DNA of 64,000 nt, taken from the IMG/VR virus record IMGVR_UViG_3300046616_000188. The stretch is one strand, 5' to 3'. This document shows positions 19,053 through 20,168 of the stretch, one piece after another. The notes under the pieces are model-generated. The model searched no databases. It was not told where the DNA came from and worked only from the letters and a program-made list of their open reading frames with translations. Numbering within the stretch: the first letter of the stretch is position 1; each line of letters starts with the position of its first letter. Both the position numbers and the translations under genes were made by a program. The stretch comes from a virus.

Positions 19053-19346
19053 ATGAAGCTTTTTCACTGGAACATGAGCGAAACATTGAAGCAATATGCT
19101 TGCGGCGATATCGTTGTCATGGCTGAGACGGTGGAACAGGCTAGAATTAAAGCTTTTGATGGTTTCATTGAGTGGATTAAAGATGAAGATAGTTCTTTAA
19201 ATCATTTAATCTGGTTTCAAGGAACAGAGAATTGGGACGAAGATTGTGAAGAGGAATATCAAGAGGTTTTGCAAAAATTAAAAGATGATTTAAGCAAAGA
19301 ACCGCTTGACAAACAGGAAGTTATCTTTATAATGGGAAGCAGTTAA
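19053..19346 (+). CDS. Acidic hypothetical protein
   Basis: 97 aa, SD AGGAGG. Confidence 0.7.
   Translation: MKLFHWNMSETLKQYACGDIVVMAETVEQARIKAFDGFIEWIKDEDSSLNHLIWFQGTENWDEDCEEEYQEVLQKLKDDLSKEPLDKQEVIFIMGSS
19306..19333 (+). promoter_or_regulatory. Consensus-hexamer sigma70 promoter driving the RNA cluster
   Basis: TTGACA-16-TATAAT. Confidence 0.7.
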
Positions 19347-19826
19347 ACAGCATACCTTGTCTGAAGATGCTAAGCGTTACAGGGCCGATACGGTAATCTT
19401 CAGAATCCGTATTGAAAAACTACTTAGGTGGGGATCGCGGGGCGCAAAAAGTCGCAGTTCCTTCTACGACGCAATAGAGTAAAGAATGGTAATACTGCGA
19501 GGTTCTAGGACACTGGCAGGTTGCATAAGGACATTCGGTTCAAATCCACTCTGGTCCCTTCCTAAGTAGTTTATAAAAGCACGGCGTACTCTGAAGGCGT
19601 TTGGCGCGTCAGGGATTACAGGTGGTAAGAGGTACAGAACAGGTCATTGACTTGCTTATGAGAAGACTACTTGCCGTGCTTTTATAAACTAATTCTAAAG
19701 TTTGGCGCAATCTGAATTGACAGGTACTGAACCGCTGGAACAGAGGCACACAGTCTTGATCGGGCGGAATGGATAAAGTAAATGAAACTCCATTAGTAGA
19801 GATAACATTGCTTGTCCCGCCTTTTT
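19340..19826 (+). ncRNA. Candidate large structured ncRNA or array of structured RNAs
   Basis: No credible ORF; closed domains at 19360-19404, 19419-19570, 19571-19687 and 19704-19821. Confidence 0.55.
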
Positions 19827-19831
19827 TATTC

Positions 19832-19906
19832 GGACGCGTAGCTCAGAGGCAGAGCATCCGGCTTTTAACCGGAGGGTCGAGATTTCAAAATTCTCCGCGT
19901 CTACCA
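19832..19906 (+). tRNA. tRNA-Lys(TTT) with atypical T arm
   Basis: Acceptor GGACGCG/CGCGTCT, D arm, tccgg-cTTTTaa-ccgga, CCA; T53/T61 instead of G53-C61. Confidence 0.85.
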
Positions 19907-19910
19907 AGAT

Positions 19911-20168
19911 TAGCGCAACGTGAGAGTTGCACTTATATGCGTGAGCTAGCTACCACGATATGAGGAGCGGAGCATGACCGGCCTGCTGATACGTATTTAG
20001 TCGAAGGCTATGTGTGCTAGAAATAGGGTAATTCAATTTAGACACTCACGATTGGGAATTGACTCAGTCTGGAATATACGAGAGTATCAGTTTAGCGCTG
20101 AATCGGTACGGAAACGGTATTCTGCGACGTAGGCTCCGACTCTGACTCGGATGATGCTTGCGGTGAGT
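19911..20168 (+). ncRNA. Candidate structured RNA domains downstream of tRNA-Lys
   Basis: Closing stems tagcgca/tgtgcta (19911-20019) and actcac/gtgagt (20044-20168) with internal hairpins. Confidence 0.4.

Follow-up and report, generated by a model that had tools for sequence, protein, structure and literature searches.

Two small RNAs of bacteriophage T4, RNAC and RNAD (also called species 1 and 2 RNAs), have been known for about 50 yr. Their role is still unknown (PMC3014915; PMC9697503). They are 139 and 119 nucleotides (nt) long; their genes come last in a phage tRNA cluster, in the same orientation as the tRNAs, and the cluster includes a homing endonuclease gene as well. Other phage-associated RNAs that often lie beside tRNAs, GOLLD and ROOL, are single RNAs of ∼600–800 nt and are also of unknown function. 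Here we analyze a stretch of 64,000 nt from IMG/VR virus record IMGVR_UViG_3300046616_000188 (hereafter the window), which is phage DNA and encodes large and small terminase subunits. Between the stop codon of a 97-amino-acid (aa) open reading frame (ORF) at 19346 and an ATG at 20191 lie 844 nt that contain tRNA-Lys and six RNA units, denoted A to F. This stretch is probably an array of distinct small-RNA genes (B to F and perhaps also A); they belong to a phage tRNA operon, lie on its plus strand, and have tRNA-Lys in their midst. The units are predicted to be independently folding, multibranched RNAs of 85–150 nt; they are a real feature and constitute new RNA families of a known kind. In agreement with an earlier sequence-only reading, which had described ∼830 nt with no credible ORF, frames of at least 25 aa inside the stretch were either short (26–41 aa) or crossed tRNA-Lys, and in the corresponding sequence of a related contig (L077) the longest (41 aa, at 19357) runs for only seven codons before a stop.

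Related contigs were fetched from IMG/VR, Logan, and ENA by means of the neighboring 672-aa DUF8224 protein and a 66-aa protein, yielding six relatives: L054, L002 (with near-identical copies L003, L068, and L069), L025, L071, L076, and L077. Their large protein is 62%–67% identical to that of the window. Five of them (L054, L002, L025, L071, and L077) share units with the window at 75%–95% identity (blastn); the adjoining coding genes are ∼70% identical, so the units are at least as conserved. L076 shares with the window only a short remnant, at ∼19996–20040. Homologs of unit B were found in L054, L002, L071, and L077; those of unit D in L054, L002, and L071; those of unit E in L054, L025, and L071; and those of unit C in L054 and L077. 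Units F and A had one homolog each, in L054 and L077, respectively.

The order of the units differs from contig to contig. The window reads A-B-C-D-Lys-E-F, compared with Leu-C-B-D-Lys-F-E in L054, Leu-B-J-D-Lys-HNH-I-H in L002, G-B-J-D-M-Lys-L-tRNA-Gln-like-E-H-I-N in L071, and C-ORF-A-B-K-ORF-Lys in L077. Units have thus been gained, lost, and reordered one at a time, with tRNAs, ORFs, and an HNH endonuclease gene intervening, and the clade holds at least a dozen unit families. Because the units are permuted and interrupted in the relatives, we read them as an array of separate genes and not as one giant RNA; the differing orders show that each unit is inherited independently. Wider searches added little to this set. 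Among INPHARED phages, blastn matches were limited to the tRNA-Lys part. The neighbor-protein route led to one further contig (L001) with an unrelated context lacking tRNAs, and a query with the 67-aa ORF gave no match. Two scans of metagenomes, the first with a protein profile and the second with the unit E pattern (E core, JGI metagenomes), gave no match. The unit C core had no copy in 185,579 bacterial and archaeal genomes, nor in IMG/VR beyond the known contig, and pattern scans of IMG/VR returned only contigs already known, plus a chance match in a coding gene (L073).

Units B and C are very well supported. Unit C (19571–19688, plus strand, 118 nt) folds with z = −5.2, all z-scores being computed against dinucleotide shuffles. 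It has a perfect 15-bp closing stem that leads to a three-way junction with two arms, and its purine-rich internal loop (GUAAGAGGUACAGAA ... CUUAUGAGAAGACU) is invariant. In the alignment of three sequences, 93.9% of the cells in 44 pairs were paired and 15 pairs changed on both sides, compared with 6.0 ± 1.8 in shuffles (none of 500 reached 15) and 0–2 with slid partners. We judged a mini-ORF in this unit (19632–19687; a Shine-Dalgarno-like GAGGU, a hairpin, and then the AUG of a nine-codon frame, MRRLLAVLL) to be coincidental. The frame is also open in L054 (MRRLWAVFL) and in L077 (17 codons); we read it as RNA and not as peptide, since the substitutions in it are non-synonymous and the non-coding strand of the closing stem carries compensatory changes that match them.

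Unit B (19419–19570, plus strand, 152 nt; z = −3.25) has a 17-bp closing stem made of 10 bp, a 1×1 U-U loop, and 7 bp. A hairpin loop, UUCCUU (19459–19464), can pair with AAGGA (19527–19531), and a pseudoknot is likely: the UUCCYU loop is constant, its hairpin stem differs in every phage, and L071 carries a matched change (loop UUCCCU, partner AGGGAA). A split stem, UAGAGU (19475–19480) with ACUCUG (19548–19553), recurs in relatives as UAGGGU/ACCCUG and UGAGG/CCUCA. Three elements lie within it: a second stem, which covaries at each of its five pairs; a long hairpin; and GGUUCAAAUCC (19537–19547), which forms a 2-bp hairpin under a T-loop-like loop. Because MAFFT misaligned the interior of B, its helices were located by script, the homologs were folded singly, and a model was built. 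With two conserved single-stranded motifs held open, all four homologs folded singly into the same architecture. Only the window and L077 went into the model, which in 832 kb detected L002 and L054 (E of about 1e-15), L071 (E of 3e-7), and no other sequence. Over 52 pairs, 96.6% of cells were paired, and 23 pairs changed on both sides, compared with 12.5 ± 2.1 in shuffles. A role for B as a CsrA-type GGA sponge was considered and rejected; AAGGA co-varies with the UUCCUU loop instead.

Units D and E are well supported. Unit D (19700–19827, plus strand, about 125 nt) has a GGCG/CGCC closure and three hairpins, the first with the loop AAUUGA at 19715–19720, and it ends in an invariant U6 (19822–19827) immediately before tRNA-Lys. 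Its z-score is −1.7 to −2.2. The four sequences available have an identical minimum free energy architecture, with 95.1% of cells paired over 31 pairs and six both-side changes (2.7 ± 1.1 in shuffles; 0/500). Unit E (19909–19995, plus strand, about 85 nt) is a cloverleaf-shaped four-way junction that is not a tRNA. Its closure, UUAGC/GCUGA (∼19910–19914 with 19985–19989), is present in all four homologs, which share the same fold throughout; 97.9% of cells were paired over 24 pairs, and six pairs changed on both sides (2.9 ± 1.1 in shuffles; 3/500). The middle arm of E carries a 10-nt loop containing an 8-nt palindrome (19944–19951), which is AGCUAGCU in three phages and AACCGGUU in L025, where two double changes (G-C to A-U and U-A to C-G) preserve the self-complementarity of the 8-mer. 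As a recurrent DNA binding site, AGCTAGCT was rejected, with two copies in 64 kb, a chance level. Since the palindrome is not recurrent as a DNA word, an RNA loop–loop dimer would be the simplest reading of this motif.

Unit F (20042–20170, plus strand, about 127 nt) is probably genuine. Its ACUCAC/GUGAGU closure holds a hairpin (F1) with the loop AAUUGA (20057–20062), then a long hairpin in the middle, and on the 3′ side a hairpin that hardly varies; the z-score is −2.1 on the plus strand and +0.1 on the minus strand. The single homolog (L054:2552–2684, 77% identity) has the same architecture, and the F1 stem is rewritten (GAUUGGG/CUCAGUC vs. CCACG/CGUGG) around the constant loop. The AAUUGA loop is thus common to D and F. 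UCAAUU was rejected as its conserved partner (present at 20033 in the window, absent from L054), and the loops were also rejected as promoters: they contain TTGAC, but no −10 element lies at the proper distance. Between E and F, the linker at 19996–20041 (plus strand) holds the last ∼25 nt (GCUAGAAAUAGGGUAAUU) of a further unit, K, and this remnant does not fold (z = +1.2). Unit K is complete in L076:752–872 and L077:4620–4738; its closing stem (UUACCCUA/UAGGGUAA or ACCCGA/UCGGGU) shows a compensatory change, ACCCUA/UAGGGU versus ACCCGA/UCGGGU. Unit A (19358–19416, plus strand) is uncertain. It contains two mutually exclusive hairpins, UCUGAAGAU/AUCUUCAGA and CGAUACGG/CCGUAUUG; a 7-bp core is kept in L077, directly before B, without covariation, and competes with the second conserved hairpin.

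The helices of B, C, D, and E thus appear, from these alignments, to be kept by compensatory substitutions in related phages. Real alignments of the four were 94%–98% paired, compared with 25%–49% for slid controls, which had 0–3 both-side changes. By energy alone, only B and C stand out. The units contain many G-U pairs, and predicted energies are lower on the plus strand: −50.5 kcal/mol versus −43.5 kcal/mol on the minus strand for B, −43.9 versus −31.8 for C, −34.2 versus −26.6 for D, and −41.5 versus −24.1 for F.

These results partly confirm the sequence-only reading, which had proposed five or six closed, multibranched RNA domains. Four of the domains (B, C, D, and F) hold. The domain drawn at 19419–19570 (B) is indeed closed and begins with a 10-bp stem, and it contains the 11-mer GGTTCAAATCC (19537–19547), but its internal loop is 1×1 and not 2×2, followed by 7 bp and not 6. 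The one at 19571–19687 (C) has the perfect 15-bp closing stem described for it, with two arms in place of at least four internal hairpins. Those at 19704–19821 (D) and 20044–20168 (F) were borne out. The bounds 19911–20019 proposed for E are wrong, although the unit itself is conserved, and the stem domain at 19360–19404 (A) was not established (z = −1.8, no covariation, and a competing conserved hairpin). As to folding, B and C are clearly better than shuffled controls, A, D, and F have z-scores of −1.8, −2.2, and −2.1, and E is no better than the controls (z = −0.55 within the bounds first proposed, −0.9 otherwise). Covariation was found in B, C, D, and E, with none in A and a single homolog available for F. 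The suggestion of an array of processed 110- to 150-nt RNAs of an unnamed family agrees with the separateness of the units (conservation, covariation, and independent shuffling), except that their sizes run from 85 to 150 nt.

Neither the units of the window nor those of the relatives had a match in Rfam, and relaxing the filters and searching short stretches did not change this; the search included the families that the sequence-only reading had named as checks (GOLLD, ROOL, YrlA, and transfer-messenger RNA [tmRNA]), and the idea of an unnamed family stands. For tRNA (RF00005), we took a cloverleaf of at least 29 bits or an ARAGORN call as the criterion: the only calls are at 18735–18817, 19832–19906, and 20509–20584, and no unit matches the tRNA model even at E ≤ 10. 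For tmRNA (RF00023 and permuted forms), ARAGORN and Rfam found none, and no CCA follows the stem of B; a tmRNA-like tag was rejected, there being no conserved tag-like reading frame that ends in AA-stop. No unit matches YrlA (RF02553; gathering score 69 bits), including B under permissive conditions at E ≤ 10. The sole YrlA match (24 bits, 20438–20553) falls on a tRNA-like gene and tRNA-Met, outside the 844-nt stretch. A Rsr/TROVE partner was sought and rejected for the four window ORFs of at least 400 aa, and none was found in three related IMG/VR records, two of which are only ∼65% complete.

The closest known parallel appears to be T4 RNAC/RNAD, a comparison already made in the sequence-only reading and apt in kind. 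As in T4, the units lie within a phage tRNA cluster and on the tRNA strand; the T4 tRNA region has segB, and the L002 cluster has an HNH ORF. RNAC (z = −4.6) consists of a closing stem and a canonical T arm with large inserted hairpins, resembling unit B here and unit J of the relatives. The two systems differ in several respects: there is no sequence or model similarity, the phage lineage is another, unit B has only a 2-bp hairpin under its T-loop, placed inside a split stem, and T4 has two RNAs where we find five or six units, from a clade with at least 12 families. Models of the two units that were modeled, C (R1) and B (R2), gave no match on the T4 locus (L080). In unit J itself (L002:1895–2008 and L071:5823–5937), a canonical T arm (GAUGG-UUUGAUU-CCAUC) directly adjoins the closing stem, and large hairpins are inserted. 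The HNH homing-endonuclease ORF (L002:2283–2840) is inserted in the RNA cluster just 3′ of tRNA-Lys.

Unit B also recalls two other RNAs. Like YrlA and Y RNA, which act with the Ro protein Rsr, it has a long stem formed from its 5′ and 3′ ends, a small internal loop, and a T-loop module; unlike them, it gives no model match, and no TROVE/Rsr protein accompanies it in the sequences searched. With tmRNA it shares a GGGG start, a stem resembling an acceptor stem, a likely pseudoknot, and, close to its 3′ end, a T-loop-like hairpin, but it lacks the ARAGORN and Rfam matches, the tag frame, and the CCA.

How such RNAs could be made is suggested by the signals around them. A consensus sigma-70-type promoter, TTGACA-16-TATAAT (19306–19333, plus strand), lies inside the 3′ end of the 97-aa ORF. 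It is exactly as the sequence-only reading had given it, with a match at 12 out of 12 positions, and is the only perfect consensus promoter within 18000–21500; the same arrangement occurs in L077 (∼3925–3955), where it leads into unit C. Host RNA polymerase would start at this promoter and produce a single precursor, A-B-C-D-tRNA-Lys-E-F, that extends past F through the small ORF to the tRNAs beyond it. RNase P would cut this precursor at the tRNA, and RNase E would cut it at AG↓UUU linkers between units; RNase III may also cut the 15- to 20-bp closing stems of B and C. The released RNAs would accumulate as do T4 RNAC and RNAD, stabilized, we propose, because both ends are buried in the closing helix. 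The AG↓UUU sequence conforms to RN↓WUU, the core motif of RNase E (PMC5222698). On the plus strand of the clusters, AGTTT occurs 3.8 times per kb, compared with 1.2 per kb elsewhere in the window and on the minus strand of the clusters, and most copies lie exactly between units, as at 19568 (B/C) and 19699 (C/D). As candidate RNase E sites, these junctions are suggestive only.

Several points weigh against an array of separate small-RNA genes made in this way. The AGTTT enrichment is no more than suggestive because the copies in related phages are not independent, and the invariant U6 after D could be a terminator, contrary to a single precursor. Unit A, without covariation, is not established; unit F rests on one homolog; and folding energy does not by itself set D and E clearly apart from shuffles. 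The alignment of unit B was fitted to its model. Each unit is represented by two to five sequences, some of them close kin, and shuffle tests overstate significance for related sequences, so that the covariation tests show consistency rather than formal significance. Finally, all relatives are metagenomic contigs.

Four other explanations were weighed against the same data. One large ornate RNA of the GOLLD/ROOL type, which the sequence-only reading had entertained, would account for a phage-borne, densely multibranched structure that adjoins tRNAs, and the whole 841 nt does fold with z = −3.15. We nevertheless reject it as extremely improbable. In relatives, the units change order, drop out, and have tRNAs, ORFs, and an HNH endonuclease gene between them; no conserved long-range helix joins one unit to another, and neither the GOLLD and ROOL covariance models nor any other Rfam model matches; GOLLD and ROOL are single long RNAs, unlike units of 85–150 nt that shuffle independently. 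We give hardly any credence either to a reading of the units as tRNA genes in decay or as some other debris without function. The region is recombination-prone, 19996–20041 is truly a remnant of another unit, and B retains its T-loop-like 11-mer, but compensatory changes maintain helices that are not those of a tRNA, the identity of the units equals or exceeds that of the flanking genes, and none of the units is matched by the tRNA model.

Two cis-acting roles fare somewhat differently. The units could be spacers without a function of their own, which help the operon transcript to fold for correct tRNA excision or shield the precursor and small mRNAs from decay. They always lie in or beside the tRNA operon and on its strand, D directly precedes tRNA-Lys in the window, L054, and L002, and the junction motifs resemble processing sites. 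Yet spacers would have no need for the invariant internal loop of C, the conserved pseudoknot partner of B, or the maintained palindromic loop of E; units also occur away from tRNAs (C of L077 has the promoter on one side and an ORF on the other), and it is an ORF, not D, that precedes tRNA-Lys in L025, L076, and L077. We consider this role rather unlikely. Cis-regulatory leaders of the riboswitch or attenuator type, controlling downstream small ORFs, seem to us quite improbable. From the end of F to the Shine-Dalgarno sequence that precedes the 67-aa ORF at 20191 is a distance of 20 nt, C of L077 ends just before a 62-aa ORF, and the two mutually exclusive conserved hairpins of A would suit such a switch, but the pairing of unit and ORF is not kept: in L054, E and then another ORF come after F, with the 67-aa homolog 370 nt further on, and the unit next after C is D in the window and B in L054. 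Nor did any riboswitch family match.

Given an array of separate small-RNA genes, what the units do is a matter of conjecture. They would act in trans, as binding or mimic RNAs and not by base-pairing with mRNA. Unit B would present its T-loop on a long coaxial stem, much like the acceptor/T-arm face of a tRNA; unit E could pair with itself through the palindromic loop; and the purine-rich internal loop of C is of a kind that might bind protein or make a tertiary contact. The phage's own tRNA kinds (Lys-UUU, Leu-UAA, and Arg-UCU) are targets of tRNA-cutting defense nucleases. A rather unlikely proposal is that the units form a toolkit of trans-acting mimic or assembly RNAs, produced by the phage together with its tRNAs. 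In it B, by copying the acceptor/T-arm face, would titrate a host enzyme that binds tRNAs or a defense nuclease that cuts them, and E would form homodimers or larger RNA-only assemblies by way of its 8-nt palindromic loop. Such an assembly would resemble the self-assembly recently seen for GOLLD, ROOL, and manA; GOLLD and ROOL self-assemble through RNA–RNA contacts (PMC12286853), and the palindromic loop of E can be viewed in that light.

Annotations of phage tRNA clusters usually show tRNAs with empty spacers between them. In this cluster the spacers turn out to be five or more conserved RNA genes, with well-supported folds and without a family name, from about a dozen such families in the clade that are traded like cassettes. 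Compact units supported by covariation offer concrete objects for probing (a T-loop and pseudoknot, an invariant purine loop, and a self-complementary loop) and could reveal whether phages deploy small RNAs against host RNA enzymes or defenses.

One family absent from the window is unit H, a conserved non-coding element of ∼175 nt without an Rfam match, found in L002:2973–3144, L071:6598–6767, L025:3948–4121, and L076:942–1122; its core, GTCGGAGGGTGGCACTTCGATGAA, is identical in L002, L025, and L071.

The tRNAs of the cluster, all on the plus strand, are tRNA-Leu(UAA) at 18735–18817 and tRNA-Met(CAU) at 20509–20584 (both called by ARAGORN and Rfam) and the canonical tRNA-Lys(UUU) at 19832–19906 (ARAGORN; Rfam tRNA score of 59.1 bits). 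All four tRNA-type genes of the window cluster encode CCA. Just 5′ of tRNA-Leu is a promoter-like sequence (18696–18730; TTGACA, 17 nt, TATGTC), with TTGACA at the same place in L054 and L002. Some tRNA genes of the clade depart from the standard form. L025:3729–3849 holds a tRNA-Lys(UUU)-like gene with a ∼48-nt insertion in the anticodon loop (Rfam tRNA score of 59.8 bits over 121 nt), which may be an intron-bearing phage tRNA; ARAGORN instead calls tRNA-Thr(GGU) at L025:3757–3852. A 91-nt tRNA-Gln(UUG)-like gene at L071:6408–6498, with a weak Rfam score of 31.7 bits, may be another non-standard tRNA of the clade. In the window, 20403–20492 is a 90-nt tRNA-like gene (acceptor stem, T arm, and GCCA) that is not called by ARAGORN. 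The same site, upstream of tRNA-Met, is occupied by a canonical tRNA-Arg(UCU) in L002, L069, L071, L076, and L077, immediately preceding tRNA-Met in L002 and L069, and L054 shares the 90-nt form of the window.

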